Numbered from the stretch's first letter, positions 924 to 41,347 are shown. The stretch is 50,316 nucleotides of DNA from an uncultured Bacteroidales bacterium (GCA_965602045.1 CBFCXR010000001.1:1-50316); one strand, 5' to 3'. Made by a program: numbers and translations. The notes: a model not told the origin generated them from the sequence alone.

Positions 924-979
924 AAATGGTTATGTTATATTATTATTAACCCGGTAAAATATATTCAGGCTAATTAAAT

Positions 980-1007
980 TTAGCGTCTGGTAATATTACC
1001 AGGCTAA
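980..1007 (-). terminator. Stem-loop immediately after the ntpK stop (putative terminator or processing hairpin, weak U-tract)
   Basis: ttagc-gt-ctggta-atat-taccag-gctaa: 6-bp plus 5-bp stems with a 2-nt bulge, starting 1 nt after the stop codon (1009-1011). Followed on the minus strand by AAATTTAATT, which is A/T-rich but not a clean T-run. Confidence 0.35.
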
Positions 1008-1008
1008 A

Positions 1009-1488
<480 letters not shown>

Positions 1489-1506
1489 TTAAAATTAATA
1501 TTAATA

Positions 1507-3917: not shown

Positions 3918-3918
3918 G

Positions 3919-7001: not shown

Positions 7002-7016
7002 ACTAAAATTCTTGAT

Positions 7017-7865: not shown

Positions 7866-7868
7866 TTC

Positions 7869-9059: not shown

Positions 9060-10763
9060 ATGAATTATGGTGTACTTGATATATTAAGATTACTGGGCGC
9101 TCTGGGCTTATTTCTTTTTGGCATGAAACTTATGAGTGAATCCCTACAAAAAGTAGCCGGGGCAAAAATGAGGAATATCCTTTCTGCAATGACTTCAAAC
9201 AGGTTCATGGGTGTTTTTACAGGACTCATTATTACATCAATAATTCAATCTTCATCTGCTACTACTGTAATGGTTGTTAGTTTTGTTAATGCGGGATTAT
9301 TGTCACTGGCAGAATCTATTGGTGTAATTATGGGGGCAAACATTGGTACAACAGTAACTGCATGGCTGATTTCCATTCTTGGATTTAAAGTAGATATTTT
9401 TTCATTTACTTTTATATTAATAGGTTTAGGATTACCGGTTTTATTTTCAAAAGATAAAAGAAAAAGTTCCTGGGGGGAAATATTAATTGGATTCTCTTTG
9501 ATATTTATGGGATTACATTACTTAAAACTATTTACTCCTGATATTAATAACAATCCTGAATTATTAGAATATTTATCAAGGTACTCCCAATCCGGCAGCT
9601 TGTCAATATTTATTTTTTTGACTATCGGCGCATTTTTAACAATGATTATTCAATCATCAAGTGCTGTTATGGCACTTACACTGGTTATGTGTTATAACGG
9701 CTGGATTTCATTTGATATGGCTGCAGCGATGGTTCTGGGACAAAATATAGGAACAACTATAACGGCAAATTTGGCTGCCATAGTTGCTAATACTTCAGGG
9801 AAACGTGCCGCAAGGGCTCACTTTATTTTTAATATAGTAGGAGTAATCATTGTTTTATTTGTATTTAATCCTTTTTTAAAATTAATTAATTGGTTTATTA
9901 TTGAAGTAGGCCTAAATTCTCCTTATTCTTCTGCTGTCCAAACGGCTGATCAAGCAGCCCGGGCTATACCAATTGCATTGTCAATTTTCCATACTGTATT
10001 TAATATACTTAATACTGTGGTTTTAATATGGTTTGCTTCGTTTATAATGAAGATTACAATGATTATGGTACCTGATCGTGATGAAGATGAAGAATTCAGC
10101 CTTAAATATATTAATACGGGATTGCTTTCAACAGGAGAGTTATCAATACTGCAGGCCAAAAAAGAAATAGTGCTTTATGCACGGCGCGCTACAAAAATGT
10201 TCGAGTTTGCCAAAGAATCATATATAGCAAAATCAGGTAAGAAATACAATAAGTATATAGGAAAAATCAGGAAATATGAAGACATATCCGATAGAATGGA
10301 AGTTGAGATAGCATCATATTTGACAAGAATATCAGAAGAATCTGTCAGTTCTTCCGGTTCTGAAAAAATAGCAAATATGCTTAATCTTATAAGTAATATT
10401 GAAAGCATAGCTGATTCAAGTAATAAACTGGCTGATACAATTGAAAGGATGACTTCACGCAAAGTTGAATTTACAAAAGATATGGACAAGAACGTAAATA
10501 AACTGTTTTTGCTCGCTGATAGAATTTTAGCGGAAATGAATGAAGGATTACGAAAGGAAGAGACTTCAATATTATCCAGGAATTATATAATGCTCAGAAA
10601 AGAGCTTCAGAATATTGAAGAAAATATGCAGGAAGATCACTTTAAAAATTTGAGAAAGGGAAAATATAAATGTGCTGTTGGAATAATATATTCTGATATT
10701 TATAGCGAAATCATAAATCTGGGAAATTACGCCTTAAACGCAACTGAATTGTTTATTCAATAA
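9060..10763 (+). CDS. Na+/phosphate cotransporter family protein (NptA/YjbB type) with C-terminal PhoU-like domain
   Basis: 567 aa with the duplicated QSSSAT/QSSSAV re-entrant motifs of Na/Pi-II-related carriers, then a hydrophilic helical tail of about 200 aa. Confidence 0.88.
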   Translation: MNYGVLDILRLLGALGLFLFGMKLMSESLQKVAGAKMRNILSAMTSNRFMGVFTGLIITSIIQSSSATTVMVVSFVNAGLLSLAESIGVIMGANIGTTVTAWLISILGFKVDIFSFTFILIGLGLPVLFSKDKRKSSWGEILIGFSLIFMGLHYLKLFTPDINNNPELLEYLSRYSQSGSLSIFIFLTIGAFLTMIIQSSSAVMALTLVMCYNGWISFDMAAAMVLGQNIGTTITANLAAIVANTSGKRAARAHFIFNIVGVIIVLFVFNPFLKLINWFIIEVGLNSPYSSAVQTADQAARAIPIALSIFHTVFNILNTVVLIWFASFIMKITMIMVPDRDEDEEFSLKYINTGLLSTGELSILQAKKEIVLYARRATKMFEFAKESYIAKSGKKYNKYIGKIRKYEDISDRMEVEIASYLTRISEESVSSSGSEKIANMLNLISNIESIADSSNKLADTIERMTSRKVEFTKDMDKNVNKLFLLADRILAEMNEGLRKEETSILSRNYIMLRKELQNIEENMQEDHFKNLRKGKYKCAVGIIYSDIYSEIINLGNYALNATELFIQ

Positions 10764-12620: not shown

Positions 12621-14045
12621 TTAAAATTCATCTGTTTTCTTCGGGAAATAATTATTTTTCTTTCGGGTAATTCTATAAACGAATGATAAATTTAATCTGC
12701 CCGGATTAACTTTATAAAGATTAAAGTTAGAATACTCATAATTCACATTTATTGTGAAATAATTATTTTCCCAGAACACTCCCGATTTGGGAGCAAAAAT
12801 AAATTTGTTTGCAGGTTTTGATATTGATCCTCTATAGCTGCCAAAAGTATATAATTCTCTTGCTCCGACAGAAATCCCCAGGGCTGACTGATCCTTAAAT
12901 TTAATTATATTATACTTTTTATCTAAACTTAAGAAAAGCGCCATCCTTATTTCCCAATACTGATATGATAATGTTTCAGATACGTCTTCGAGAACCCTTT
13001 TTCTCCAGGGCCGGATAGTATAACCATAATTTAATACGGTATTATATTTTCTATCATGCAAACCCATATTTACTCCGGCCATAAAATCATTAAGATTGAA
13101 ATCTACGTTCATGCCAAAAGCATATTGACTGATACTTGGTAATAAATTTCTTTTGCCATTATTTTCCAATAAGAATCTTTTAATAGATTTGTTTTTATGT
13201 TTACATGCCAATGATACCGGATTTTCTGTTAGTGATATTTTTTCATTAACATTTGCTCCTTTTTCTGTTAATAATATAACCGATTCAAGGTCTTCCTGTT
13301 CAACTGCTATGGCAATCGGAGAATATCCCGAATGTGTTTTCGCATTTACACCAGCGCCATTATTAATCAGTAATTCCGCCAAATTTGAATAACCATTTTG
13401 TACAGCACAATGTAATGCCGATAAACCTTTGTTATCTGTTGAGTTAACATCAGTGCCGGCTTCAATTAGCCTGGCTCCTATATCATAATCACCATAGTAA
13501 GATGCTAACATAAGGGCATCTGTTCCGGATTTATTTTTTCTGTCTGCTTCTGCTTCATAATATAATAGCATATCCAATATAATAAAATGTCCGTAAGCCG
13601 AGGCATACATTAATGGTGTACTACCTGAGTTGTCAGTAATATTTATGTCTGCACCATTTCTGATTAGATATTCAGCAATGTAGAGATTGCCGGTTATAAC
13701 CGAATTAATTAGTACCGGTATTCCACTATTTGGTTTTTTATCCAAATCAGCCCCATTCAGTACTAATATTTTTATCATGTTGGTATCCTGGTTTTGCACT
13801 GCATACATTAAAGGAGTGACACCTTCCCAGGTTTTAAAATTAACATTGGCTCCTTTATTTAAAAGACGTATAACTTCCTGCGGATATCCTTTTTCGGTTG
13901 CCAGTAAGAGGTTATAGTCAATATTTCCTTTAATATAGTATGAAGTATCAATTTTGGCCGTATCAGTACTAATTGAATCCTGGGATAATCCATTTATTGA
14001 ATATGTAATTAACAGTAGTATCAGTAAATGCCTTTGGATTTTCAT
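12621..14045 (-). CDS. Signal-peptide ankyrin-repeat protein with a beta-rich (putative outer-membrane barrel) domain of about 170 aa at the C-terminus
   Basis: 474 aa with about 8 ANK repeats (TPLMYAVQNQDTNMIKILVLNGADLD, STPLMYASAYGH, LSALHCAVQNGYSNLAELLINNGAGVN...). The C-terminus shows alternating hydrophobic patterning (YTFGSYRG, FTINVNYEYSNFNLY, LNLSFVYRI). Confidence 0.8.
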   Translation of the reverse strand: MKIQRHLLILLLITYSINGLSQDSISTDTAKIDTSYYIKGNIDYNLLLATEKGYPQEVIRLLNKGANVNFKTWEGVTPLMYAVQNQDTNMIKILVLNGADLDKKPNSGIPVLINSVITGNLYIAEYLIRNGADINITDNSGSTPLMYASAYGHFIILDMLLYYEAEADRKNKSGTDALMLASYYGDYDIGARLIEAGTDVNSTDNKGLSALHCAVQNGYSNLAELLINNGAGVNAKTHSGYSPIAIAVEQEDLESVILLTEKGANVNEKISLTENPVSLACKHKNKSIKRFLLENNGKRNLLPSISQYAFGMNVDFNLNDFMAGVNMGLHDRKYNTVLNYGYTIRPWRKRVLEDVSETLSYQYWEIRMALFLSLDKKYNIIKFKDQSALGISVGARELYTFGSYRGSISKPANKFIFAPKSGVFWENNYFTINVNYEYSNFNLYKVNPGRLNLSFVYRITRKKNNYFPKKTDEF

Positions 14046-14237: not shown

Positions 14238-16520
14238 TTATGGTAATCTTGATTTTATTGGGATATTTAACTTATTATATTCATTAAAGTCTCTGGATGC
14301 CTTTAGTAAATTTATTGTATAAGAGATCAGGTTTTTACTTTCTGCGAGTAAATCCAGATATAAAATACTGATACGGGTATTTGAATCTTCCTTTTTGATC
14401 AGCTTTATCTGATTTTTACGAAGCTTTACAATTGTATCTGTTAAATTCCTGGATATTGAAACTATCTTATTAACATTTTCAAATGAATTGCCGGAGATAA
14501 TTTTTGTTACTTCTTCAAGGAAATTATTGACTTTTTTCCTAAAGCTGCTCAAATCTTTTATCTGCGAGTCTTTCAAAGGCGCATGATTATTATCAACATG
14601 ATCAAAGACCGGCTTAGCCATTGATAAGATGCTTTGCGTAATATTTCTGAGATTATCCAAAACCACCAAATAATGATGTCCGCTTTCAATGGATTCTGCT
14701 TCTTCGAGTTTTCGAATTGTAATTTGTATATTTCTTTTTAGAGATTTAATCTCTTTATCCAGTTTACCTGCATCCTTACCTGACTTCTTAAGTTTTTTAC
14801 GTTTTTCACCTGCCAAACCATTTATAATGATTTTATATAAATCTGATACTGCAGTTAAAGTAGATATAATCTTTGAGTTACATTTTTCATAAACTGTTTT
14901 TCCATCAACAATTAAACTATCGGTTAAAACAGCTTCATCTTTTTCCTCTTTTTTTATTCTTTTCCTATGTAAAATATGTGTCTTATAAAGGAAGAATATT
15001 ACTATAACAATAAGTATTGGGATAGCGATTACTTTTGCCCAGGAGATAAACAATGCAACCAGGAAGGCTACAGTAAATGCACTCAGTGCAGTAAAAAACC
15101 AACCGCCTATAACCGTTAGAACTCCGGTAATTCTATATACTGCACTTTCCCTGTCCCACGCCCTGTCAGCCAGGGATGTACCCATCGCAACCATAAATGT
15201 TACGTATGTTGTGGATAGAGGGAGCTTTAGTGAGGTAGCAAATGAAATAATTATGCTTGCTACAACCAGATTTACGGATGCTCTTATTAAGTCAAAGGAA
15301 ATAGTCTTGTCTCTTTTTACTGTTTTTCTAAAGTATTTATCATTAAATCGTCTGTTAACGGCTTTTGTAATTGATTTTGGTATTATTATTTTAAAAAAAT
15401 TACCTGCCTGGATTGATTGCCTCACCAGAGTACGGGCCAGCATAGATGACTCGAATCTTTCAAATACCTGGTCCTGGTCACTTAGTCTTAATTCGGTCTT
15501 AACCACCGATTTAGCTTTTTTGGAGAGCCAGAGGGTAATAACCATAACCAGTCCGGCAATGAGAAGGAACATAGTAGGGGTTTTAACCTTACCCTGAAGA
15601 GCATCCATAAGAAATGAGTCGGGCCCAACTACGTCCTGGGCAATAAAGTTTTTAAAAGACTCAAATCCTGCTAAAGGTACTCCGATGAAATTAACAAGGT
15701 CATTGCCTGCAAATGCCATTGCCAGGGCAAAAGTGCCAACCAGTACTATTAATTTAAGAATATTGAGTTTGAATATCCATATCAGTAATTGCATTAAAAC
15801 TGTCCAGCCGCCAAAACTAATTATCAGTATCGTATATGTATTTTCTTTAATCCATGCTAACTTCTCAGGGGTAACAAATGAAGAGCCTTTAGCTCCTTTA
15901 ATTAGTATAAAATAGGTAATTGCGGTAATTGCAAAACCTCCCCATATTGCTCCAAAATATTTTAGAGTTTTAATATATTTGAATGAAAAGATTAATCTGG
16001 TAACATATTGTACAATTGCTCCCAGACTAAAAGCAACAATAACTGATAATAGTATTCCGGAAATAATGAGCAAAGCCCTGCCCGAATTAATATAATTTCC
16101 CAGTTTGTAAATTCCTTCAGGAGAATTACTGATTTTTAACAATGAAATAGCAACGGCAGCACCCAGCAATTCGAATACTATAGAAACGGTTGTAGAGGTT
16201 GGCATTCCGAAGGTATTATAAAAATCAAGGAGAATAATATCAGTAATCATTACTGCAAGAAAAATGATCATTATTTCAGCAAAATAAAACTGCCCCGGAT
16301 GAAAAATGCCTTTTCTTGCAACCTCCATCATGCCGCTTGAGAAAGTAGCACCTACCAAAATTCCCAATGCAGCAATTGTCATAATAACTTTAAATGGAGC
16401 AGCTTTTGAGCCAATAGCTGAATTCAGGAAATTTACCGCGTCATTACTAACGCCAATAATTAAATCAGATATAGCAAGAGCAAATAATATAACTACAACT
16501 ATTAAGTAGAAAGTCGGCAT
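14238..16520 (-). CDS. Inorganic phosphate transporter, PiT (PHO4) family, with long C-terminal PhoU-like or coiled-coil cytoplasmic domain
   Basis: 760 aa with duplicated PiT signature (GVSNDAVNF near the N-terminus, AGNDLVNFIGVPL mid-protein). The last 250 aa or so are hydrophilic and helical. Confidence 0.88.
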   Translation of the reverse strand: MPTFYLIVVVILFALAISDLIIGVSNDAVNFLNSAIGSKAAPFKVIMTIAALGILVGATFSSGMMEVARKGIFHPGQFYFAEIMIIFLAVMITDIILLDFYNTFGMPTSTTVSIVFELLGAAVAISLLKISNSPEGIYKLGNYINSGRALLIISGILLSVIVAFSLGAIVQYVTRLIFSFKYIKTLKYFGAIWGGFAITAITYFILIKGAKGSSFVTPEKLAWIKENTYTILIISFGGWTVLMQLLIWIFKLNILKLIVLVGTFALAMAFAGNDLVNFIGVPLAGFESFKNFIAQDVVGPDSFLMDALQGKVKTPTMFLLIAGLVMVITLWLSKKAKSVVKTELRLSDQDQVFERFESSMLARTLVRQSIQAGNFFKIIIPKSITKAVNRRFNDKYFRKTVKRDKTISFDLIRASVNLVVASIIISFATSLKLPLSTTYVTFMVAMGTSLADRAWDRESAVYRITGVLTVIGGWFFTALSAFTVAFLVALFISWAKVIAIPILIVIVIFFLYKTHILHRKRIKKEEKDEAVLTDSLIVDGKTVYEKCNSKIISTLTAVSDLYKIIINGLAGEKRKKLKKSGKDAGKLDKEIKSLKRNIQITIRKLEEAESIESGHHYLVVLDNLRNITQSILSMAKPVFDHVDNNHAPLKDSQIKDLSSFRKKVNNFLEEVTKIISGNSFENVNKIVSISRNLTDTIVKLRKNQIKLIKKEDSNTRISILYLDLLAESKNLISYTINLLKASRDFNEYNKLNIPIKSRLP

Positions 16521-20930: not shown

Positions 20931-22349
20931 CTAATGAATTCCTATAAACATCCTTTTAAACCTTATTTTCTTAACGAAATTTTTATCTTTATCAATTGAC
21001 AACCAGATAAATTTAGGTTTTCCAACGATATGATCGTCCGGCACGAATCCCCAGAAACGGGCATCTAAGCTGCCATGGCGGTTGTCTCCCATCATCCAGT
21101 AATAGTCCATCCTGAATTTATATTCATCTGTTTCAATCTCATTTATATATATTTTACCATCCTCAACTTTTAAATTATTATTCTCATAATGATCAATTAT
21201 ACGGCGATATAAAGAAAGATTTGAAGTGTCAATTTTTATTGTTGCTCCTTTTTTGGGTATATATAAAGGTCCGAAATTATCAAGGTTCCATTTATATCTT
21301 ATATCATGGGGGAAAACCGAGAAATCATAATAACCCTGGGGCATGATTATTTTATTAACTGAAACAACATTTCTATAATTTTTAATGATTTTCAAATTGT
21401 CTTTAGTAAGAGGTATCTCCCATGCAAAATCCTTATTTATATTCCTTTTAATGTCTGTTCTTGAAATGCCCAGCTTTTCCAGTTTTCTTCTATTCAGTGC
21501 TGAACCATTTGTAATGATTTCATAATCAAATTGAATCCCCGGAATATTGTCCTGAGGTTTACTATTAACATAAACGTTGCCGTTAATAATTTCCAGAGTA
21601 TCTCCCGGAATAGCCACACATCTTTTAATATAATTGTCTCTTCTATCTACGGGATGTACGACTATATCCATATTTTCCCAGATGTTTTTCCTGGCCTTAT
21701 TATAATAATATTCATCATCTTCTCTGATTTTCCTGTAGAACATATCCATTTGTTTAAGTTTTTCAGCTTCTTGCAGAATAAGAAGATAATAACTTGTATT
21801 TCTTTGTTGTATTGCAACCGTATCGCCTTCAGGAAAATTAAATACCACTGCATCATTTCTTTTAATTTTCCCGAATCCTTTTAATCGTTTATATGGTAGT
21901 TTTATCCATTCAAGATATGACTTTGTTTTTGTTGTAAGCGGGAGGGTATTTTGGGCAAAGGGAAAAGCAAGTGGCGTGTTGGGTATTTTCGGTCCAAAAG
22001 CAACTTTGCTGACATACAGGTGGTCACCAACCAATAGCGATTTTTCCATAGAAGGCGTAGGGATTTTATAGTTTTGAAAAAGAAATATATTTATAAGTGT
22101 AACAGCAATTACCGCAAATATTAAAGCATCTAACCATTCGATTAACGTACTGTTTTTTCCTTCTCTTTTTTTCCAGAAACTCCAGTTTACTTTTTTCGAT
22201 ATATAGATATCGAATATTATTATTAATCCAGGAAATAACCAGTAACTGCCAAGCCAGATAACCCATAGAATATAAATTATTGATGCAAATGCAAACTTTA
22301 TATAATCCTTCTTAAAGAATTTCATATTTAACTTTTTAATCGGTACCAT
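20931..22349 (-). CDS. lepB: Signal peptidase I
   Basis: 472 aa; catalytic Ser box PSMEKSLLVGD, Lys box YIKRCVAIPGD, GDNRHGSLDARFWGFVP. An alternative start at 22325 (MKFFKK) aligns better with the paralog. Confidence 0.92.
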   Translation of the reverse strand: MVPIKKLNMKFFKKDYIKFAFASIIYILWVIWLGSYWLFPGLIIIFDIYISKKVNWSFWKKREGKNSTLIEWLDALIFAVIAVTLINIFLFQNYKIPTPSMEKSLLVGDHLYVSKVAFGPKIPNTPLAFPFAQNTLPLTTKTKSYLEWIKLPYKRLKGFGKIKRNDAVVFNFPEGDTVAIQQRNTSYYLLILQEAEKLKQMDMFYRKIREDDEYYYNKARKNIWENMDIVVHPVDRRDNYIKRCVAIPGDTLEIINGNVYVNSKPQDNIPGIQFDYEIITNGSALNRRKLEKLGISRTDIKRNINKDFAWEIPLTKDNLKIIKNYRNVVSVNKIIMPQGYYDFSVFPHDIRYKWNLDNFGPLYIPKKGATIKIDTSNLSLYRRIIDHYENNNLKVEDGKIYINEIETDEYKFRMDYYWMMGDNRHGSLDARFWGFVPDDHIVGKPKFIWLSIDKDKNFVKKIRFKRMFIGIH

Positions 22350-22351
22350 AT

Positions 22352-23698
22352 TTATTGAATTGATTTAAACATTCTTTTCCATCTTATTTTACCAAGTGAT
22401 TTTTTATTTTTATCCAAAGATAACCAAACAAACATTGCTTTACCAATTATATGATTTTCAGGAACGAATCCCCAGAATCTTGAATCATTTGAATTATGCC
22501 TGTTATCACCCATCATAAAATAATAATCCATTTTAAAAGTATAACAATTTGTATATTCTCCATTTATAAGTATTGAGTCGTTATTAACTGACAAATCATT
22601 ATTTTCATAAACTGAAATAATTCTGGTATATAACGGAAGATTATCAATATTGATATTTATAGTTTCATTTTTTTTTGGCACCACTAAAGTACCAAAATTA
22701 TCTTCCGTCCATAAATATTTATCATCAAAAGGAAAAATCTGACGATTAGTTGATAAGGGATCTACACTTTCATATTTACGGATACCTTTGACTATCTCAT
22801 ATTGTCTTATTTCATTATAAGTTTCCCGGGTTAAAGGTATTTCATATATTGAGTTTAAGAAATTATAATTTATATCGTATGCGGATATATCAATTTCTTC
22901 AAAAACAGAGTTGTCAATTTCCTTATTTTCAGATATTACAAAGTAGTTATACTGCAGATTTTCGGGTTCCATTTCCGGCTCTCCATTGATAAATGCTTTA
23001 CCATGTATAATTTGTATTGTATCACCAGGTATTCCGATACATCTTTTGACATAATTTTCACGTTTATCAACAGGATGTGTTTTTATTTTATAATTTTTAA
23101 ATATATGTTCATGTCCGTATTTTCTTACTAATGTATAATAAGTTTCGTCGGTTTTGGGATAATTAACTGCTACTGTATCACCCTCAGGAAAGTTAAAAAC
23201 AACAACATCATAGTTATTTATTTTAGTGTAACCCGGCAATCTTTTATACGGTAATTGCAGCCATGTTAAATAAGAACTAATTCCTTTAATAAAGGGCATT
23301 GTATTATGTGAGAATGGCATAGACATCAGGGTTTGGGGAAGTCTGGGGCCATATCTGAGTTTATTCACAAATATATAATCCCCTACGTAAATTGATTTCT
23401 CCATTGATGATGTTGAAATTGTGTAGGGTTCAATAATTAAAATCCTTAAAAAAAGAACCAATATCAGGGCAATTATGAAAGCATCCAGCAACTCTGTTTT
23501 GAATTTATATTTATCATCTTTCTTAATCCTTTTTTTCCAAAATGTCCAGTTTACCCAGTTAGTTATATATATATCTACCAGTATAATTATACCAAGAAAC
23601 AACCAGTAATTCCCAAACCATGATACAATTATGGTATATATTATCGAAGAGATTAAAAGCTTAAAATATGGATTTTTAAATAATTCTTTATAAGTCAA
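22352..23698 (-). CDS. lepB: Signal peptidase I (tandem paralog)
   Basis: 448 aa; [39 protein letters not shown]. Its stop lies 2 nt upstream of the next lepB start. Confidence 0.92.
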
Positions 23699-31414: not shown

Positions 31415-31498
31415 GCCGAAGTGGCGAAATTGGTAGACGCGCATGTTTCAGGGACATGTGTCTGCAAAGGCATGAGGGTTCGAGTCCCTCCTTCGGCA
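31415..31498 (+). tRNA. tRNA-Leu (anticodon CAG), class II with long variable arm, no encoded CCA
   Basis: Acceptor gccgaag/cttcggc; anticodon stem catgt/acatg with loop ttCAGgg; T-arm gaggg-ttcgagt-ccctc. Confidence 0.92.
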
Positions 31499-31502
31499 CA
31501 AA

Positions 31503-31599: not shown

Positions 31600-31684
31600 G
31601 CCCAGGTGGCGGAAATGGTAGACGCGCATGGTTGAGGGCCATGTGTCCCAACAGGACGTGCAGGTTCAATTCCTGTCCTGGGCA
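31600..31684 (+). tRNA. tRNA-Leu (anticodon GAG), class II, no encoded CCA
   Basis: Acceptor gcccagg/cctgggc; anticodon stem catgg/ccatg with loop ttGAGgg; variable stem gtcc/ggac; T-arm gcagg-ttcaatt-cctgt. Confidence 0.92.
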
Positions 31685-31777
31685 CTAAATCTTCAATGAA
31701 TTCCTCAAACTTATATATCCCTGGTAAACCTGGAATTGGATATTAACAATCACTGATTTTTAAGTCTGGAACAAGTT

Positions 31778-34072
31778 TTATTTGTATAATTGTTTTTTCA
31801 TAATATCATAAAGGACATCCTTATTAATGGGTTTTGATATGTAGTCATCACATCCTGCTTCAAAGCATTTTATTTTATCCTCATTATAAGCACAGGCTGT
31901 TTGTGCTATAACCGGCAAGTCTTTTCTGAATTCTTTAACTTTTCTGGTCGCTTTATAGCCGTCCATTCCGGGCAACTTAATATCCATTAAGACAAGATCA
32001 ATTTTGGAATTGTCTCTTACAAATTGAATAGCTTCTTTTGCATCCTTTGCAAACAGACAATTAAGTTTTGCATCTTTAAAAAGTTCTTTAAAATACAAGA
32101 CATTTAAATCCTCATCCTCAACTACCAGGATAGTTTTATTATTAAATTTTTTTGTGGTTTCTTTATAAGTATCATCAATTAATAATGTTTCTTCGTTAAC
32201 AGCGTGAGAAATTGTAAAGTAAAATGAACTTCCAATACCCGGGGTAGAGTTTATCCATACCTTCCCACCCAGTAACTCGACCAAACCTTTTACAATGCAT
32301 AAACCAAGTCCCGAACCACCGTATGTCTTTGACATTGATTCATCAACCTGCCTGAAACGTTGAAATATAATTTTTTGAAATTCTCTTGAGATACCAATAC
32401 CTGTATCTTTGACTTTGAATTGGATAGTATGATTATCTTTAACCGTATAACCGAATTCGATATACCCGGTGTCTGTAAATTTAAATGCATTGTTCAGAAG
32501 GTTTGTCAGTATCTGCCGCAGCCTGTGTTTATCAGAATAAATATAACATTGATCTGTATATTTGTGTTTAAGACGAAAATCAATACCGGGTTTATTATTT
32601 TTATTTTTATATAGTTCAAATTCATAATATACTTCATTCATTAATTTACTTATATTAAACGTATATTTATCAATTTTAAGCTGCTGAGCTTCAATTCTTG
32701 ACAGATCCAAAATATCATTTATTATACGTAATAGTTGGCTGGTGCTATCTTTAATAATTTCAGAATAATATCTTTTTTCTTCCTTTGAAAGCTCTTCACT
32801 ATTTAACATTTCGGTAAAGCCAATAATTCCATTCATAGGAGTACGAATCTCATGTGACATATTTGCTAAAAATGCAGATTTCAAACGATCAGATTCTTCA
32901 GCTTTCTCTTTAGAATTAATTAATTCATTTTCAGCTTTTTTTTGTTTTGTGATATCACGTGCTACTTCTCCCAGTCCAATTATATCTCCCACGTTATTCA
33001 GCACCGGGAATCCCTTAACTTCCCATATTTTATTGTCAGGTGTTGTAATAATATTAAAATGAACCTTCTTGGATTCCAGGGCTTTTAATACCGGGCATTC
33101 TTCGCAAGGCTCTTTATTATTTAATAGTACTTCATAACAATATTTATTCTCGAATTCAATGGGATCAATATTAAGATATTTGCTTACAGCATTATTCGCC
33201 CATTTTATTTTTAAATTTTCATCATAAAACAAAAACAATTCAGATGTTGAATCTAATATCATTGATTTTTCCTTTTCTACTTTTTCCAACGCTTTTTTTG
33301 TTTCAATTATATCTGTAACATCATGAATAGCTAAAATTATTTTGTCATAATTTTTTATTTCGGTATTTAGTAACTCGCCAACACAATGTATGGTTTTTAA
33401 CCTTTTATCGGGGCAGTTAAATTTGAGTATTAAGTCAAAATTTTCTTTTGTTGATGTTAACTCATTAATTGCATTTTCAAATACTTTCCTTTCCGATCGC
33501 TCTACTAAATGGATAATATTTTTTAATGAAGTTTTGAATTTTTCAGGTTGTAATCCAAAAATTTTATAAAATTCCGGGGAACATTTGCAAATCCCGTTTT
33601 TAATATCAATTTCACAACTGCCTAAATGTGTTATTTCCTGTGTTTTCCTTAAATTATTTTCACTTGTTTTTAATAATTTCTCGGCCCGTTTATGTTTTTT
33701 CCGTATTTCCGCATCTTTTATTTCTCTCTCAATAGCAGCACTTAACCGGTGCAGATTATCTTTAAGTATATAGTCGGTTAATCCATTTTTCATGGCTTCA
33801 ACCGCATTTTCTTCACCAATTGTGCCTGACACGAAAATAACCGGCAAATAATCATTTAAATTTTTAACTATTTCCAGGGCTTCCAGTCCTGAAAAGCCGG
33901 GAACCTTATAATCAGCTAAAACGATATCGGGTTGAAATGAATTAAGCATTTCAATAAATTCATTCCTGTCATCCGTTGCTTTATAAGAAAAAATTAATTT
34001 ATCTTTTTTTAATTGATTTAGTGTCAATTTTATATCGTATTGATTGTCCTCCAGTATTAATATTTTTTTCAT
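31778..34072 (-). CDS. Hybrid sensor histidine kinase/response regulator (REC-PAS-PAS-HisKA-HATPase-REC)
   Basis: 764 aa; N-terminal receiver (VLADYKVPGFSG), H-box SHEIRTPMNGI, N-box LLNNAFKFT, G-boxes DTGIGI and GGSGLGL, C-terminal receiver (VLMDIKLPGMDG). Confidence 0.92.
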   Translation of the reverse strand: MKKILILEDNQYDIKLTLNQLKKDKLIFSYKATDDRNEFIEMLNSFQPDIVLADYKVPGFSGLEALEIVKNLNDYLPVIFVSGTIGEENAVEAMKNGLTDYILKDNLHRLSAAIEREIKDAEIRKKHKRAEKLLKTSENNLRKTQEITHLGSCEIDIKNGICKCSPEFYKIFGLQPEKFKTSLKNIIHLVERSERKVFENAINELTSTKENFDLILKFNCPDKRLKTIHCVGELLNTEIKNYDKIILAIHDVTDIIETKKALEKVEKEKSMILDSTSELFLFYDENLKIKWANNAVSKYLNIDPIEFENKYCYEVLLNNKEPCEECPVLKALESKKVHFNIITTPDNKIWEVKGFPVLNNVGDIIGLGEVARDITKQKKAENELINSKEKAEESDRLKSAFLANMSHEIRTPMNGIIGFTEMLNSEELSKEEKRYYSEIIKDSTSQLLRIINDILDLSRIEAQQLKIDKYTFNISKLMNEVYYEFELYKNKNNKPGIDFRLKHKYTDQCYIYSDKHRLRQILTNLLNNAFKFTDTGYIEFGYTVKDNHTIQFKVKDTGIGISREFQKIIFQRFRQVDESMSKTYGGSGLGLCIVKGLVELLGGKVWINSTPGIGSSFYFTISHAVNEETLLIDDTYKETTKKFNNKTILVVEDEDLNVLYFKELFKDAKLNCLFAKDAKEAIQFVRDNSKIDLVLMDIKLPGMDGYKATRKVKEFRKDLPVIAQTACAYNEDKIKCFEAGCDDYISKPINKDVLYDIMKKQLYK

Positions 34073-35513: not shown

Positions 35514-35965
35514 TAGCCGATAACCCATAGTATCCTTTCTTCATCTGCACATTTCTCAGTAAATTCAATAAGTTCTTTATTTATCTGTTTCAACTTTGCG
35601 AGGTAAGTTTCCCATTTTTCAACCCAGTTTTTATCAATATTAGTGAGTTCCTCAACGAATCCCCTGCCAAAGAGTTTCTGAGAAATTAAAGTTTTAAACT
35701 TATCTTTTGATTTAATCCTGTCAAATTCTTTAAGATTTTTCAGTAATTCATTTCTTAGGGGAATGATTTTTCGTGAGTTATATTTTGTTGAGCTAAAATA
35801 ATCATAAAGCTTATTGGCATTTTCAAAACAAGCAGTAAACAAATTGAAAACCGCGCTGTCAAGATATATGGATTCTGAATCACAACGCTTATAATTATTA
35901 TTGTCACCAGTTATATTAAGCTCAACAAAGTTGAGATCATCAGCATCATAAATTTCTAATTTCAT
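35510..35965 (-). CDS. Hypothetical cytoplasmic protein
   Basis: 151 aa, helical, no recognised motif. Convergent 4-nt overlap (CTAG) with aat. Confidence 0.5.
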   Translation of the reverse strand: MKLEIYDADDLNFVELNITGDNNNYKRCDSESIYLDSAVFNLFTACFENANKLYDYFSSTKYNSRKIIPLRNELLKNLKEFDRIKSKDKFKTLISQKLFGRGFVEELTNIDKNWVEKWETYLAKLKQINKELIEFTEKCADEERILWVIGY

Positions 35966-36126
35966 TTTAGTATCTAATTTTTTTCTAATTTAATATAAAT
36001 AAATATATTAATTCTTAATCAATTTCCAAAATTATAAGTTAAGGCTTATAAATTATATTATTTTTATTATTATTTGCATAATCATTCTGCTTAATTTGTA
36101 AACTATAATTTAAAATCGGATATGAA

Positions 36127-37551
36127 ATGACTAATTTGAAAGAGTTTAAAAAACAAGCATATAAATTTATTGATTGGATAGTTGAATATTATGAAGATAT
36201 TGAAAAATATTCTGTAAAACCTGATGTTGAACCTGACCAGATATATAAAAAACTACCGGCTAAACCACCTGAAAATGGAGAACCTATTGATACTATATTT
36301 GAAGACTTCAATAAGATAATATTGCCGGGATTAACACACTGGCAAAGTCCTAATTTTTTTGCCTATTTCCCGGCAAATTCCAGTTTGCCTTCTTTTCTGG
36401 CTGAGATAATAACTGCCGCACTTGGTGCTCAATGTATGAAGTGGGAAACTTCACCGGCTGCAACCGAATTGGAAGAGTTAGTTATGGACTGGTTAAAAAA
36501 AATGCTGAAACTGCCTGACTATTTTCATGGTGTAATACAGGATACTGCATCAACATCAACTCTTTGTGCATTATTGACTGCCAGAGAAAAGCTATCCGGT
36601 TTTAAAATTAATGACCTTGGATTTGAATTATCAGATGCTTATAGAGTATATTGTTCGGAGGAGGCTCATTCATCGGTTGAAAAAGCGATTAAAATATGCG
36701 GCATAGGCAGCAGGAATCTAATTAAAATTGAGACTGATGAACTTTTTAGCCTTAAACCGGATGTATTAAAGAAAAGGATCGAAAAAGATATAACAGCAGG
36801 GAAAAAACCTTTGTGTGTTGTGGCAACTTTCGGTACAACAAGCTCAACAGCAATAGATCCCATTGAAGAAATTGGTAATATATGCAGGAAATATAAGTTA
36901 TGGCTTCATGTTGATGCTGCATATGCAGGCTCTGCATTAATTCTGCCCAAATATAGAAGAATGGTTAAAGATTTAAGGCAAGTTGATAGTTTTGTTGTGA
37001 ATCCTCATAAATGGCTTTTCACAAATTTTGATTGTTCAGCATATTATGTCAGAGATAAAGAATCATTGATCCGGACTTTTCAAATAGTTCCGGAATATTT
37101 AAAAACACCTAATCAGGGAAGAGTTAATGATTATTGCGATTGGGGTATTCAGCTGGGAAGAAGGTTCAGAGCACTAAAACTGTGGTTTGTAATAAGAAAT
37201 TTCGGATTAAAAGGTTTACAGGATAAATTAAAAAAACATATTTCATTGGCCGGCTATTTTAAGGAATTGATAATAAACGATAAGGATTTTGAACTGGTTG
37301 TACCGGTTAATTTTAATCTTGTTTGCTTCCGGTTTAAGCCGCAAAACATTTTATGTCATGAAACCCTGAATAAGATTAATGAACATTTATTGGAGACTAT
37401 TAACAACACAGGTAATATTTATCTGACTCATACCAGGTTAAAAGGGATTTATACCCTGAGAATGGCTATAGGACAGACAAACGTTGAGAAAAGACATGTT
37501 GATGGCGCCTGGAAATTAATTAAGGAAAAAGCGTATAGCCTTAAAATTTAA
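36127..37551 (+). CDS. Pyridoxal-dependent (group II) aromatic-L-amino-acid decarboxylase-like enzyme
   Basis: 474 aa; HWQSPNFFAYFPANSSLPSFLAEIITAALG and SPAATELEELVMDWLKKML closely resemble animal/plant DDC/TyDC as I recall them. PLP-lysine motif NPHKWL. Confidence 0.88.
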   Translation: MTNLKEFKKQAYKFIDWIVEYYEDIEKYSVKPDVEPDQIYKKLPAKPPENGEPIDTIFEDFNKIILPGLTHWQSPNFFAYFPANSSLPSFLAEIITAALGAQCMKWETSPAATELEELVMDWLKKMLKLPDYFHGVIQDTASTSTLCALLTAREKLSGFKINDLGFELSDAYRVYCSEEAHSSVEKAIKICGIGSRNLIKIETDELFSLKPDVLKKRIEKDITAGKKPLCVVATFGTTSSTAIDPIEEIGNICRKYKLWLHVDAAYAGSALILPKYRRMVKDLRQVDSFVVNPHKWLFTNFDCSAYYVRDKESLIRTFQIVPEYLKTPNQGRVNDYCDWGIQLGRRFRALKLWFVIRNFGLKGLQDKLKKHISLAGYFKELIINDKDFELVVPVNFNLVCFRFKPQNILCHETLNKINEHLLETINNTGNIYLTHTRLKGIYTLRMAIGQTNVEKRHVDGAWKLIKEKAYSLKI

Positions 37552-37587
37552 TAATTAGTACTTTACCCTTATAAATTAACAGAAAAA

Positions 37588-39021
37588 TTGAAAAGCAAAA
37601 TCATATCATCAGTAACTGAACTTTTTAAAGACTGGTTAGGGGAATCTCCCGTAAGTATTATAAAATTGCCTGAAACAACTTCGGGTAGAAAATATTACAG
37701 GCTTCAGGCAGGTGATATTTCGGCAATCGCCGTATTTAACAATAACAAGAGGGAGAATAATGCATTTATTTACCTCTCTAACCATCTTCGGAAGCATAGT
37801 GTTAATGTCCCGCTCATTTATAAAGTTAATGATAAGAATAATGTCTATTTGATAGAAGATTTGGGAGACATGACTCTTAATAAATACCTGGGAGAAAATA
37901 AAGACAAAGATTTATTTACTAAGATAGCCGGGGTCATATATAAAAGGATTATCGACGAAATGCCTGCGATACAGGTCAGTGCATCCCGTGATTTGGACTT
38001 TAGTATTTGCTATCCCAGACCTGAATTTGATTATCAAAGTATAATGTGGGATCTGAATTATTTTAAGTATTACTTTCTGAAACTGGCAGGAATAAATTTT
38101 GATGAACAATATCTGGAAAAAGATTTCCAGGCATTTACTGATTATTTGCTGGAGGCTGATCGTAATTATTTTTTGTACAGAGACTTTCAGTCAAGGAATA
38201 TTATGCTCAAAAACGATAAAATTTATTTTATCGATTATCAGGGTGGCAGGAGAGGAGCTTTACAATATGATCTGGCTTCATTACTGTTTGAGGCAAAAAC
38301 GCATTTATCATATGAGCTTCGAGAAGAATTGCTGGATTATTATATCACTGTTAACTCAAAAAGAAAAAATTTTAACTCAAAGGAATTTATCAGATATTAC
38401 CCCGGATACATTTTCATTCGGATGATTCAGGCGATGGGCGCGTATGGATTCAGAGGTTATTTTGAACGTAAAACTTTTTATTTGAATAGTATACCCTATG
38501 CTGTTAGAAATTTGAACTGGCTTTTATCAAATTATGATCTCACGGTTAAGATGCCGGAATTATCCGGTTGTTTGCAGAAGATAACTAATTCAGAATTACT
38601 TAAGGAATATGAGCAACATCAGGCAGAATTTGTCATTTCTATTAATAGTTTCTCTTATAAATCCGGCATGCCTCAGGACAACTCGGAAAATGGGGGAGGA
38701 TTTGTATTTGATTGCAGGGCAATGCCTAATCCTGGCCGATATGCCCAGTATAGCCAATTAACAGGGAAAGATAAATCAGTAGTTGACTTCCTGGAACAAG
38801 AGCAAGAAGTCAGAAAATTTCTCGATAATGCATATTCAATTGTTAAGGCATCAATTATAAATTATCAGGCCAGGAATTTTACAAATCTCATGATAAATTT
38901 CGGCTGCACAGGTGGCCGGCACAGATCAGTCTATTTCTCCGAACAACTAGCTAATCGGATAAGACATGACTTTAATATTAAAATTAAATTACGGCACAGA
39001 GCTTTGGAAAATATGTCTTAA
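37588..39021 (+). CDS. Fusion protein: AmgK-like (APH-fold) anomeric sugar kinase domain plus RapZ C-terminal-like domain
   Basis: 477 aa, TTG start. Kinase motifs YRDFQSRNIM (D199, N204) and FIDYQGG (D216). Residues from about 347 to 477 read SFSYKSGMPQD...FVFDCRAMPNPGRY...FGCTGGRHRSVYFSEQLA, matching the RapZ C-domain pattern but without RapZ's N-terminal P-loop domain. Confidence 0.75.
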   Translation: MKSKIISSVTELFKDWLGESPVSIIKLPETTSGRKYYRLQAGDISAIAVFNNNKRENNAFIYLSNHLRKHSVNVPLIYKVNDKNNVYLIEDLGDMTLNKYLGENKDKDLFTKIAGVIYKRIIDEMPAIQVSASRDLDFSICYPRPEFDYQSIMWDLNYFKYYFLKLAGINFDEQYLEKDFQAFTDYLLEADRNYFLYRDFQSRNIMLKNDKIYFIDYQGGRRGALQYDLASLLFEAKTHLSYELREELLDYYITVNSKRKNFNSKEFIRYYPGYIFIRMIQAMGAYGFRGYFERKTFYLNSIPYAVRNLNWLLSNYDLTVKMPELSGCLQKITNSELLKEYEQHQAEFVISINSFSYKSGMPQDNSENGGGFVFDCRAMPNPGRYAQYSQLTGKDKSVVDFLEQEQEVRKFLDNAYSIVKASIINYQARNFTNLMINFGCTGGRHRSVYFSEQLANRIRHDFNIKIKLRHRALENMS

Positions 39022-39143
39022 TTTAACGATTGAATAAAATTTAGAAATTTTAACAAAACAAAATAAATAGTTAAGGGTTATTGTATTATAGATGAATAGC
39101 ATTACAGGGTAATATTTTTTTGAACTAAAACCGGAATCATTTT

Positions 39144-39893
39144 ATGAAGGCAATGATATTAGCTGCAGGGGAGGGTACACGTTTAAAACCACTAACTAAT
39201 AAAATACCCAAAGCATTAATTGAGGTAAATGGTAAACCATTGTTGGAGCATACGATTCGTTATTTGTTATATTATGGTGTGGATGAGATTATTATTAATG
39301 TCCATCACCTGGCTGATCAAATCATAGATTATATTAAACTTAAAAACTATTTTAACATAAGAATAGAATTCTCAGTTGAAAAGGATAAATTATTGGGAAC
39401 GGGCGGGGGATTAAAAAAAGCATCATGGTTTTTCAATGACAGTAAATCATTTTTCCTTGCAACTGCAGACATAATTACTAATCATGATCTTAACAAGTTG
39501 TATAGTATGCATGTACAATCTGATGCCCTGGTTACATTAGCTTTAAAATCCAGACAGTCAACACGGGAACTATTATTAAATGACGATTATCATTTATGCG
39601 GGTGGAAGAGTAACGTCACAGGAGAAAGGAAATTGGTTAACGATGATGCAGATATAAAATATTCTATTGCATTTAGCGGGTATCATGTTATTAATCCTTC
39701 TATTTTCAATAAAATCTCAGAAGAAGGCTCATTTTCGATAATTGATTTATATTTAAAGCTGGCAAATGAAAATGTAATTAATGGATTTATTCAAAATGAT
39801 TCATTCTGGATAGAGTTTGGAAGAATAGGAAACTTTAAAGCAGCCGGGCGATCAAAGAAACTGAAAAAAATAATATCCAAATACAATGATTAA
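39144..39893 (+). CDS. Sugar-1-phosphate nucleotidyltransferase, MurU-like (N-acetylmuramate alpha-1-phosphate uridylyltransferase candidate)
   Basis: 249 aa; MKAMILAAGEGTRLKPLT...PKALIEVNGKPLLEH...GTGGGLKKA, close to my recollection of Pseudomonas MurU. Confidence 0.75.
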   Translation: MKAMILAAGEGTRLKPLTNKIPKALIEVNGKPLLEHTIRYLLYYGVDEIIINVHHLADQIIDYIKLKNYFNIRIEFSVEKDKLLGTGGGLKKASWFFNDSKSFFLATADIITNHDLNKLYSMHVQSDALVTLALKSRQSTRELLLNDDYHLCGWKSNVTGERKLVNDDADIKYSIAFSGYHVINPSIFNKISEEGSFSIIDLYLKLANENVINGFIQNDSFWIEFGRIGNFKAAGRSKKLKKIISKYND

Positions 39894-40021
39894 TTAACTT
39901 CTGACAGCATTTTGCTTATAAATATGCATTTATTTTCCCAACTTCTGACTTCAAAATTATATACTGTTTAGTTTTTTTTGTTTATTTGCGATCTTATTGC
40001 ATCACCTTATTTCAGTAATCA

Positions 40022-41347
40022 ATGAATAAAAAGGACAAAAATTTAATAGACACATTAGTTGATCCTTTTCAGAGATTTTTTCAAATTGAAGCTTCAGGTA
40101 GTATTCTTTTGTTTATTGCTACACTGGTAGCTCTGTTATGGGCAAATTCGAGGTGGGATATTTTTTATACCGAACTGTGGGAGAATAACTTATCAATAAA
40201 ATTAAATGGTTTTGTATTATCCAGATCTTTACTGCATTGGATAAATGAAGGCTTAATGGCTGTTTTCTTTTTTGTTATAGGACTTGAAATTAAGCGTGAG
40301 ATTCTTGTGGGTGAACTTTCATCTTTAAAACAAGGGACTTTACCCGTTATTGCTGCTATTGGAGGCATGATATTTCCCGCATTTATTTATTATGCATTGA
40401 GTAAGAATACTGTTACCGAAGCAGGTTGGGGTATACCAATGGCTACAGATATTGCATTTTCATTGGGTGTGCTGAACCTGTTAGGCAAACGTGTACCTGT
40501 TAACCTGAAAGTATTTCTTGTTGCTTTTGCTATTATTGGCGACCTTGGTTCAGTATTGATTATTACATTATTTTACAGCGCTGGCATTAACTTTAGTTTT
40601 CTGATAATTGGACTTGGATTATTTTTCGTCCTTGTTCTTTTTCATCAGTTGAGGATAAGGAATTATCACATTTACATGGTCATAGGATTTGTTATATGGT
40701 ATATGTTTTTAAGATCCGGTATACATCCAACCTTCGCAGGTATCTTAATCGCATTTACAATACCAATGCGGCGCAAAATAAGAGTTCCCGTTTTTAAAAA
40801 GAGAATGATTGAAAATTTAAATGTTTTTAGCAGTAAGTCAGGAAGTTATAAAAAGCTTTTAAACAAAAGGCAGTTGGCAGGGATTGATAATATGGAGGAT
40901 GAAATTGAAAAAGTACAAAGCCCCTTACAATTTCTTGAGCACAAATTACATGGATTTGTAACATTTATTGTTATCCCTCTCTTTGCTCTGGCTAATGCAG
41001 GCATTGTTTTTAAAGCCTTTAGTGCTGAGGAATTTTTTAATTCAACTAGCCTTAATGTTGAACTTAGTCTGATTATAGGAAAACTGTCAGGCCTGGTAAT
41101 TTTTTCATGGATCAGTATTAAAATCGGAATCGCCTCCCTGCCGGAAAAGACAAGGTGGATTCACCTAATAGGTTTAGGACTGCTTGGGGGTATGGGATTT
41201 ACAATGTCTTTATTCATTTCTAACCTGGCATTTACTGATCCCGGATTAATAAATTATGCTAAAATAGGAATCTTAACTGGCTCTTTAGTTTCAGGATTAT
41301 TGGGATTTCTTGTATTGAGATTTAGTCTGACTAAACAAAAAGCCTGA
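40022..41347 (+). CDS. nhaA: Na+/H+ antiporter NhaA (with Gly-Asp in place of the canonical Asp-Asp in TM V)
   Basis: 441 aa; WGIPMATDIAFSLGVL (the Thr-Asp of TM IV), AIIGDLGSVLII (TM V), IIGKLSGL (the Lys of TM X). Confidence 0.9.
   Translation: MNKKDKNLIDTLVDPFQRFFQIEASGSILLFIATLVALLWANSRWDIFYTELWENNLSIKLNGFVLSRSLLHWINEGLMAVFFFVIGLEIKREILVGELSSLKQGTLPVIAAIGGMIFPAFIYYALSKNTVTEAGWGIPMATDIAFSLGVLNLLGKRVPVNLKVFLVAFAIIGDLGSVLIITLFYSAGINFSFLIIGLGLFFVLVLFHQLRIRNYHIYMVIGFVIWYMFLRSGIHPTFAGILIAFTIPMRRKIRVPVFKKRMIENLNVFSSKSGSYKKLLNKRQLAGIDNMEDEIEKVQSPLQFLEHKLHGFVTFIVIPLFALANAGIVFKAFSAEEFFNSTSLNVELSLIIGKLSGLVIFSWISIKIGIASLPEKTRWIHLIGLGLLGGMGFTMSLFISNLAFTDPGLINYAKIGILTGSLVSGLLGFLVLRFSLTKQKA

Follow-up and report, generated by a model that had tools for sequence, protein, structure and literature searches.

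What does a RapZ-type C-terminal domain do when it is attached to a sugar kinase? The question is raised by a gene within a 50,316-nucleotide stretch of DNA (GCA_965602045.1, CBFCXR010000001.1:1-50316; hereafter the window, meaning the whole stretch that was analyzed) from an uncultured Bacteroidales-like bacterium with about 32% G+C. The gene encodes a 477-residue protein in which an AmgK-like kinase of the APH fold is joined through a linker to a RapZ-type C-terminal domain (CTD), and it is followed on the same strand by a gene for a MurU-like sugar-1-phosphate nucleotidyltransferase (Table 1). In our opinion, the two genes are on balance probably the version, proper to Bacteroidota, the wider Fibrobacteres-Chlorobi-Bacteroidetes (FCB) group and Acidobacteriota, of the AmgK-MurU shortcut for salvage of N-acetylmuramic acid (MurNAc), with a CTD that binds a phosphorylated amino-sugar metabolite.

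The fusion of the kinase and the RapZ C-domain is real. An earlier note on this DNA had read it, from the sequence alone, as an AmgK-like kinase fused to a RapZ C-domain that lacks the P-loop N-domain of RapZ, with a MurU-like gene behind it, and this architecture is confirmed by Pfam, NCBIfam and a structure model. The coordinates given there are exact, and translation recovers every motif that was quoted at its proper place: RDFQSRN and CTGGRHRS (Table 1), SFSYK at 38647-38661, CRAMPNPGRY at 38713-38742, FIDYQGG, and MKAMILAAGEGTR at 39144. Both domains proposed in the note are found by Pfam on the one protein, i.e., PF01636 (APH) at residues 28-253 (E 1.9e-7) and PF22740 (RapZ C-terminal domain) at residues 349-473 (E 1.2e-34), so that the possibility of the last 130 residues failing to match RapZ profiles did not materialize. 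The full-length AlphaFold model, computed from 107 homologues, has a predicted local distance difference test score (pLDDT) of 92.1 and a predicted template modeling score (pTM) of 0.75; the pLDDT dips around residues 330-350. The note had also allowed for two genes having been joined artificially near 38600-38650. The chance that the fusion is such a frameshift, read-through or assembly artefact is practically nil, and we regard it as ruled out: the 477-residue protein recurs, 99% identical and with the same neighbors, in three independent assemblies, and all 120 of the best 120 listed homologues are about 475 residues long and carry both PF22740 and PF01636. The 797 cluster representatives and the matches in reference genomes, at least 596 of them, including those of cultured Rosettibacter, Labilibaculum and Carboxylicivirga, tell equally against an artefact.

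The RapZ C-domain at the C-terminus is genuine. Chains of Escherichia coli RapZ in the PDB align with residues 312-475 at E values of about 1e-18 (1.3e-18 for 5o5s). When the C-terminal half of the full model is compared by Foldseek with the RapZ CTD in 5o5s, the template modeling (TM) score is 0.92 and the root-mean-square deviation (rmsd) is 2.0 Å. A model of the CTD alone (pLDDT 93) agrees with RapZ structures at TM scores of 0.84-0.93 and rmsd values of 1.4-2.8 Å; its significant Foldseek matches in the PDB are RapZ entries only, the next match having E ≥ 0.08. The likeness ends with this domain. The curated RapZ model NF003828 is covered only over its positions 148-277, by residues 337-472 of the protein, with 110.1 bits against an equivalog cut-off of 244, and the N-terminal half belongs to the APH family instead of carrying the P-loop (Walker A/B) domain of RapZ.

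The second line of evidence concerns the spread and the ancestry of the fusion, which looks ancestral and, far from being a rarity, is how the enzyme is normally built in several phyla. An exhaustive HMMER search, run with a cut-off of E ≤ 1e-30 over 1.84 billion cluster representatives, returned the 797 proteins mentioned above (representatives at 50% identity), nearly all of them full-length with 470-490 residues. A scan of one genome per species confirmed at least 596 out of 600 candidate stretches, and the best 80 loci were analyzed for their neighbors. These 80 loci come from Bacteroidota, Ignavibacteria/Melioribacteraceae, Calditrichia, Neomarinimicrobiota, Elusimicrobia, many Acidobacteriota and others, with cultured isolates, such as the three genera named above, among the carriers; further members were found in Chitinophagaceae, Muribaculaceae, Bacteroides sp. 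and Mediterranea massiliensis. With a Muribaculaceae member as the query, the search arrived at Bacteroides and Mediterranea and at no Tannerella. The extent of the fusion, which the earlier note had left as a question, is therefore wide, at about 800 clusters of 50% identity in several phyla. A single RapZ_C match was found per locus (loci of up to 21 kb), and none elsewhere in the window.

A few close relatives that consist of the kinase only, 340-358 residues long and devoid of RapZ_C, also exist (L085 4001-5053, which is P0267; P0419-P0426; P0460) and are 45-58% identical to the fused kinases. In L085, the one kinase-only locus that was inspected, neither a remnant of the CTD nor a MurU-like neighbor is present. 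In a rough neighbor-joining tree without bootstrap, the kinase-only proteins nest within the fused family at two or more places; the fusion therefore looks ancestral, with occasional secondary loss. One homologue of 718 residues (P0250) bears a 3'-5' exonuclease domain (PF01612, DNA_pol_A_exo1) N-terminal to the kinase-RapZ_C part and may be a merger of gene calls or an odd fusion.

The kinase half points to AmgK. The top kinase families of NCBIfam are the two AmgK models (NF045759, 54.6 bits; NF045698, 46.4 bits), followed by Bud32 at 26 bits; both curated AmgK models are of proteobacterial type. The sole sequence relative of this half in the PDB is 3csv (E 3.6e-11), which is also the structure closest to the kinase half of the model by Foldseek (TM 0.78). 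Since 232 residues taken from 3csv reach 190 bits with NF045698 (and 95 with the other AmgK model), 3csv is an alpha-proteobacterial AmgK-type kinase. The APH fold, an intact catalytic Asp/Asn loop and a predicted Mg-binding aspartate, as in AmgK, are all found. Thus, R198, D199, R203 and N204 of the catalytic loop are invariant in an alignment of 107 sequences, to which the statements on invariant residues in this text refer, and Q201 and S202 are conserved in at least 90% of them; D216, Q218, G219, G220 and R221 of the second motif are invariant as well. D216 presumably binds Mg2+, as we take to be general for the APH fold. A 108-residue open reading frame (ORF) at 38099-38425 (+) lies in another frame wholly within the kinase gene and is almost certainly spurious.

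Analogously, the downstream product has the makeup of MurU, i.e., a single minimal NTP_transferase domain (PF00483 at residues 2-137 of 249) with the N-terminal G-x-G-T-R-(x)4-P signature (N-terminus LAAGEGTRLKPLT) and no C-terminal left-handed β-helix (LbH) domain. Public gene callers begin this gene at 39153, which yields 246 residues. The top two NCBIfam families are both MurU (NF045761, 127.9 bits; NF045697, 104.4 bits), and the best PDB match, aligned over the full length, is MurU of Pseudomonas putida (4y7t, E 8.9e-24). A scan of 35900-40100 for promoters and terminators did not exceed what shuffled sequence yields, and it placed no terminator in the spacer that separates the genes. Upstream, a pyridoxal phosphate (PLP)-dependent group II decarboxylase (36127-37551, +; PF00282, E 2.5e-116) ends 36 nt before the fusion gene; its weak best match is diaminobutyrate decarboxylase, and it may be co-transcribed with the fusion gene. 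As a core part of the system it was rejected: the pairing is seen only in the closest relatives, and the decarboxylase is not a recurrent neighbor in the 80 loci.

The third line of evidence is the linkage of the kinase to a MurU-type uridylyltransferase, a trait shared with AmgK. A MurU-like gene lies directly downstream on the same strand in 60 of the 80 loci, representing at least six phyla, and also in gut Bacteroides; the two genes are 122 nt apart in the window, 10 nt apart in Bacteroides and 0-278 nt apart elsewhere. Moreover, eight of the 10 longer homologues tested (712-816 residues) contain APH, RapZ_C and NTP_transferase, in this order, in one polypeptide, the linker between RapZ_C and the transferase being only about 10-20 residues. 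One of these triple fusions has five cluster members from several sources, on contigs of up to 103 kb, and its transferase part scores best on the MurU models. A gene for the MurQ etherase (divergent, 395 bits) is found in seven of the 80 loci, a MurA gene (557 bits) in eight, a 1000-residue protein combining glycoside hydrolase family 3 (GH3) with a β-lactamase fold in five, and an ElyC/DUF218-like protein in eight; the loci with murQ, murA and GH3 neighbors are mostly from Acidobacteriota. The peptidoglycan-sugar salvage context proposed in the earlier note therefore holds, through the gene order, through these neighbors in some loci, and through the triple fusions. In L054, L082 and other Acidobacteriota loci, murQ/murA are divergent upstream of the kinase-RapZ_C/murU pair with the 1000-residue protein nearby, an arrangement that looks like a compact peptidoglycan-sugar island.

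The same data bear on the idea that the kinase and the nucleotidyltransferase serve another sugar (GlcNAc or GalNAc only, or another hexose-1-phosphate destined for a surface glycan), with a coincidental tie to MurNAc salvage. Both enzymes stay under the equivalog cut-offs, archaeal GlmU-type, AglF and HddC models also match the nucleotidyltransferase, with 78-90 bits, the window offers no peptidoglycan-recycling neighbors, and the near-universal presence of the pair in some clades would suit a housekeeping route to a UDP-sugar. Nevertheless, AmgK and MurU come out on top for the two proteins in both NCBIfam and the PDB, the gene order is that of amgK-murU, murQ, murA and GH3 genes are neighbors in some loci, and an AmgK/MurU route has been reported by the Mayer laboratory in Bacteroides sp. 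and Tannerella forsythia (PMC8054146, PMC5790795). A different sugar is, on this evidence, quite unlikely. Gene order, fusions, peptidoglycan neighbors and the published route, taken together, make an AmgK/MurU-like salvage role the best supported one.

In the anabolic route known from Pseudomonas, Caulobacter, Legionella and T. forsythia, AmgK and MurU convert MurNAc to MurNAc-1-phosphate and then to UDP-MurNAc (PMC8054146, PMC5790795, PMC13046382). From homology and context we infer the substrates of the pair discussed here, as well as the ligand and any allosteric role of the CTD. The APH-fold kinase would place a phosphate on C1 of a free amino sugar, most likely MurNAc and possibly GlcNAc also. 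The MurU-like enzyme would then combine the sugar-1-phosphate with UTP to form the UDP-sugar, whereby MurA and MurB would be bypassed. Candidate ligands of the CTD include glucosamine-6-phosphate (GlcN6P), MurNAc-6-phosphate (MurNAc-6P), GlcNAc-6P, the sugar-1-phosphate product and the UDP-sugar. Binding of such a ligand would couple the output of the kinase to precursor status, or would hand the product over to MurU.

That the CTD has retained a ligand pocket is indicated by residues of E. coli RapZ (PMC5737377, PMC9841335) mapped onto 25 diverse fusion proteins. In E. coli, sulfate, malonate or RNA phosphate occupies this pocket, which has been proposed as the site for GlcN6P, and the C247S variant is inactive (PMC5737377, PMC9841335); binding of GlcN6P by the E. 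coli CTD has been reported (PMC7073468). The pocket core C247, T248, G249, H252 and R253 corresponds to C440, T441, G442, H445 and R446, which are identical in all 25 proteins and invariant. The equivalents of K170 and R184 are conserved too. The pocket comprises C-T-G-G-x-H-R-S plus K358 and R377. Thus, the presumed GlcN6P pocket of E. coli RapZ, part of the domain that the earlier note had read as an amino-sugar-phosphate (or RNA) sensing module, is invariant in the fusion family, and the sulfate/malonate/GlcN6P site of PF22740 is present save for one position: H190 of E. coli is replaced by glycine in 25 of 25 fusion proteins, followed by a conserved R-Y. The surroundings of the pocket are specific to the clade. 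They include a 5-residue insert that is not in E. coli RapZ, and D364, G369-G371, D375, C376, R377, N381, P382 and G383 are all invariant, C376 of F-D-C376-R being the second invariant cysteine besides C440. The idea of a feedback sensor fits, by analogy, the binding of GlcN6P by the E. coli CTD (PMC7073468).

An invariant cysteine in a phosphate-binding loop also suits another function, namely that the domain is a second catalytic site, a Cys-dependent phosphatase or phosphotransferase acting on an amino-sugar phosphate through a C-x5-R-S loop. For example, it might turn MurNAc-6P into MurNAc in place of MupP, the fusion protein as a whole then converting a 6-phosphate into a 1-phosphate. The loop has the required form, C440-TGGRH-R446-S447, placed in the model after the strand 433-440 and before the helix 446-461; C440, the entire C-T-G-G-x-H-R-S loop and C376 are invariant, and the domain matches the catalytic kinase in its degree of conservation, with a mean majority fraction of 0.696 versus 0.691 for the kinase core and 23 of 124 versus 50 of 281 invariant columns. 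MurQ, whose gene is the divergent neighbor in seven loci, acts on MurNAc-6P. Besides the inactivity of C247S, a "chemically transformed product" of GlcN6P was seen in the E. coli pocket, for which its authors suggested a catalytic thiol (PMC9841335). Against this stand the existence of kinase-only relatives, the lack of a demonstrated enzymatic activity for any RapZ C-domain in the cited RapZ literature, and the fold itself: the CTD model shows no fold-level likeness to protein tyrosine phosphatases (PTP), low-molecular-weight PTP, ArsC or EIIB. A PTP-like fold was accordingly rejected, Foldseek having returned no phosphatase or EIIB match and phosphofructokinase (PFK) only at E of about 0.8, and the resemblance in C-x5-R is therefore one of motif only. 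We consider a catalytic CTD unlikely.

It is improbable, in our estimate, that the domain is mainly an oligomerization or scaffold module that dimerizes the kinase and docks MurU, with no role for a ligand. The CTD of E. coli RapZ dimerizes by itself (PMC5737377), the domain sits between kinase and nucleotidyltransferase in the triple fusions, and the kinase fold functions alone both in proteobacterial AmgK and in the relatives that consist of the kinase only, all of which a scaffold would explain. A scaffold would, however, have no need of an invariant phosphate-binding loop or of some 23 invariant positions clustered in the pocket motifs.

The earlier note had left room for RNA as the ligand, and this part of its proposal is disfavored. 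Of the basic residues of E. coli RapZ, K194 is replaced by Q/E, R238 by F (25/25), K251 by Q (21/25) and K270 by I/V/L in the 25 fusion proteins, and the K281-R282-K283 tail is variable or absent. Neither the basic RNA-binding surface nor the C-terminal K/R tail of RapZ is thus retained, and the net charge of the CTD ranges in the family from -7 to +8 and its isoelectric point (pI) from 5.0 to 9.5, versus +5 and 9.5 in E. coli. A protein that binds RNA as E. coli RapZ does and, as a second job, controls amino-sugar genes post-transcriptionally would be in keeping with the homology to an RNA-binding domain, with the retained K170 and R184 equivalents and with the basic CTD of the window protein (pI 9.2). 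It is nonetheless very improbable, given that five of the positions mapped as RNA contacts or tail carry neutral or hydrophobic residues or vary, that the pI falls as low as 5.0 in the family, and that H190, essential for GlmZ binding, is glycine in all members. Moreover, an Rfam scan of the window yields two tRNAs (both tRNA-Leu) only, with neither a riboswitch nor any further RNA element close to the operon; GlmY and GlmZ are known from enterobacteria. A phosphorylated small molecule, and not RNA, is the most likely ligand of the RapZ-type domain. Annotation by the Prokaryotic Genome Annotation Pipeline (PGAP) names the members "phosphotransferase" or "RNase adapter RapZ", and there is no curated family model for the fusion clade. 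The second name, carried by P0056, P0100, P0107, P0290, P0453, P0474, P0495 and P0496, does not fit proteins devoid of the RapZ N-domain and of most RNA-contact residues; it is probably wrong and propagating.

Several points weigh against the view of the pair as a salvage shortcut equipped with a metabolite-binding CTD. By sequence, both enzymes are remote from characterized AmgK and MurU: neither comes near its equivalog cut-offs, which are 550 (NF045759) and 500 (NF045698) bits for AmgK and 250 (NF045761) and 370 (NF045697) bits for MurU, so that substrate identity is assigned by analogy only. In 18 of the 80 loci, 2.4-10 kb of downstream sequence contain no MurU-like gene (the two remaining loci end within 0.5 kb), and no other peptidoglycan-recycling gene is among the annotated genes of the window. 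The nested kinase-only subgroup indicates that the kinase can exist without the CTD. Since H190, essential in E. coli RapZ, is glycine here, the ligand specificity has probably changed. The pTM of the full-length model is only 0.75. Finally, allosteric feedback sensing, a second catalytic site, hand-over of the product and oligomerization fit the data equally well.

A bolder version of the catalytic idea can be formulated, in which the RapZ C-domain was ancestrally an amino-sugar-phosphate module paired with a kinase. The APH kinase, the C-domain and MurU would form a machine for UDP-MurNAc salvage whose invariant Cys/His/Arg pocket, as a second active site, would for example remove or transfer the 6-phosphate of MurNAc-6P and so let a 6-phosphate become a 1-phosphate without MupP. 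By extension, canonical RapZ/YvcJ, in which a P-loop kinase-like domain accompanies the C-domain, would be a repurposed small-molecule phosphotransfer enzyme. Although improbable, this scenario would, if true, account for the essential C247 and the "transformed GlcN6P" in E. coli.

Table 1. Features of the fusion gene, its partner gene and fused homologues (positions in the window)
Feature	Position	Strand	Basis
Gene for APH/AmgK-like kinase + linker + RapZ-type C-domain	37588..39021	+	ORF, TTG start, 477 aa; Pfam, NCBIfam
Kinase domain, aa 1-340, APH/eukaryotic-like kinase fold, AmgK-like	37588..38607	+	PF01636, NCBIfam, PDB, Foldseek
Catalytic loop R198-D199-F-Q-S-R203-N204, Brenner-type motif	38179..38199	+	alignment of 107 sequences, translation
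D216 of F-I-D-Y-Q-G-G-R, predicted Mg2+-binding aspartate	38233..38235	+	alignment
Variable inter-domain linker, aa 305-346	38500..38625	+	mean majority fraction 0.49, zero invariant columns
RapZ-type C-terminal domain, aa 347-477	38626..39018	+	PF22740, PDB matches, model
Clade-specific pocket surroundings: insert D364-x4-G369-G-G371, F-D-C376-R377, N-P-G383-R-Y	38677..38742	+	alignment
Phosphate-pocket loop C440-T-G-G-R-H445-R446-S447 (E. coli RapZ C247-T248-G249-G-K-H252-R253-S)	38905..38928	+	alignment
Spacer between the two genes, 122 nt	39022..39143	+	no terminator-like site found
MurU-like minimal sugar-1-phosphate nucleotidyltransferase, 249 aa	39144..39893	+	PF00483, NCBIfam, PDB
Triple-fusion homologues, 712-816 aa: P0200, P0203, P0207, P0232, P0252, P0253, P0256, P0194			

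The other genes of the window are housekeeping genes, e.g., those for a V-type ATPase, phosphate transporters, signal peptidases, DapB, ThrRS, NhaA and MnmA. Part of a V-type ATPase operon, of a kind typical of Bacteroidota, occupies 399-8486 (-) and encodes the I, A and B subunits and a DUF2764 protein, with four annotated ORFs (1507-7865). An ankyrin-repeat protein of 474 residues (12621-14045, -) is encoded between the Na/Pi-PhoU (9060-10763) and PHO4 (14238-16520) phosphate transporters; ankyrin repeats are uncommon in free-living bacteria. Two tandem paralogues of signal peptidase I (S26) at 20931-23698 (-) are unusually long, with 472 and 448 residues, each with a split S26 match. The tRNA-Leu genes at 31415-31499 and 31600-31685 (+), with anticodons CAG and GAG, adjoin a hybrid sensor kinase of 764 residues (31778-34072, -) that has receiver domains at both ends.

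A literature search found no paper on the fusion, and none that names RapZ together with AmgK, an extra domain of AmgK, or a RapZ-like domain in Bacteroides; the kinase-RapZ_C fusion appears to be undescribed, though it is visible in precomputed Pfam annotations. Its significance is, in our opinion, threefold. First, the kinase prevails in Bacteroidota (gut Bacteroides and Muribaculaceae among them), Acidobacteriota and related phyla in a form with an extra, highly conserved domain, which implies a control or catalytic step that is not in the textbook pathway. Intrinsic fosfomycin tolerance in Pseudomonas, MurNAc auxotrophy in Tannerella and metabolic labeling of peptidoglycan all rest on the AmgK-MurU bypass. 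Second, a "Rosetta stone" fusion with a non-homologous kinase, and sometimes with the enzyme that would form the UDP-sugar, suggests that the core job of the domain is the handling of amino-sugar phosphates, and hints that it first worked in amino-sugar metabolism and not in RNA binding. Third, RapZ/YvcJ proteins are widespread, and the fusion offers a tractable system for addressing their function outside Enterobacteria and the pocket chemistry of the C-domain. The "RNase adapter RapZ" label on some members merits re-examination.

Among known systems, AmgK of P. putida, P. aeruginosa, Caulobacter and Legionella shares with the fusion kinase the APH fold, the catalytic loop h-R-D-F-x-S/A-x-N, the I-D-F/Y-Q motif and a place directly upstream of a MurU-type gene. 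Proteobacterial AmgK, at about 325-360 residues, lacks the RapZ-type C-domain of about 130 residues, and the low scores of the fusion kinase (46-55 bits versus cut-offs of 500-550) set it apart as a third, deeply separated branch; as a system, the fusion pair most likely represents a third, non-proteobacterial branch of AmgK-MurU salvage. MurU of P. putida (PDB 4y7t; also 8hhd) has the same single-domain size of about 225-250 residues, the G-x-G-T-R-L-x-P-L-T signature and the position downstream of the kinase, whereas the window enzyme contains an insertion of about 20 residues in the central region relative to 4y7t, and in some lineages of the fusion family the transferase is joined to the kinase-RapZ_C protein. 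In Pseudomonas, MupP, a MurNAc-6P phosphatase of the HAD family, acts alongside AmgK; the fusion would span both steps if its C-domain handled MurNAc-6P, yet this domain has no homology to HAD phosphatases.

The nearest relative of the C-domain is that of RapZ (YhbJ) of E. coli and the YvcJ/Rv1421 family, which is homologous (36% identity) and superimposes within the rmsd range given above. The two share the C-T-G-G-x-H-R-S phosphate pocket, identical in both, the K170/R184 equivalents and a context of amino sugars and cell-envelope precursors. They differ in the N-terminal half, where RapZ has a P-loop (Walker A) domain and the fusion protein a non-homologous APH kinase, and in the pocket, where the fusion protein has the H190-to-Gly replacement, the G-G-G insert and a second invariant cysteine. 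Most RNA-contact basic residues and the KRK tail are lost in the fusion protein, with no sign of small RNA or RNase E partners. Canonical RapZ, in which a P-loop kinase-like domain is combined with the C-domain, is thus an architectural parallel of the fusion protein, which agrees with the suggestion that RapZ arose through the repurposing of parts of metabolic enzymes (PMC5737377).

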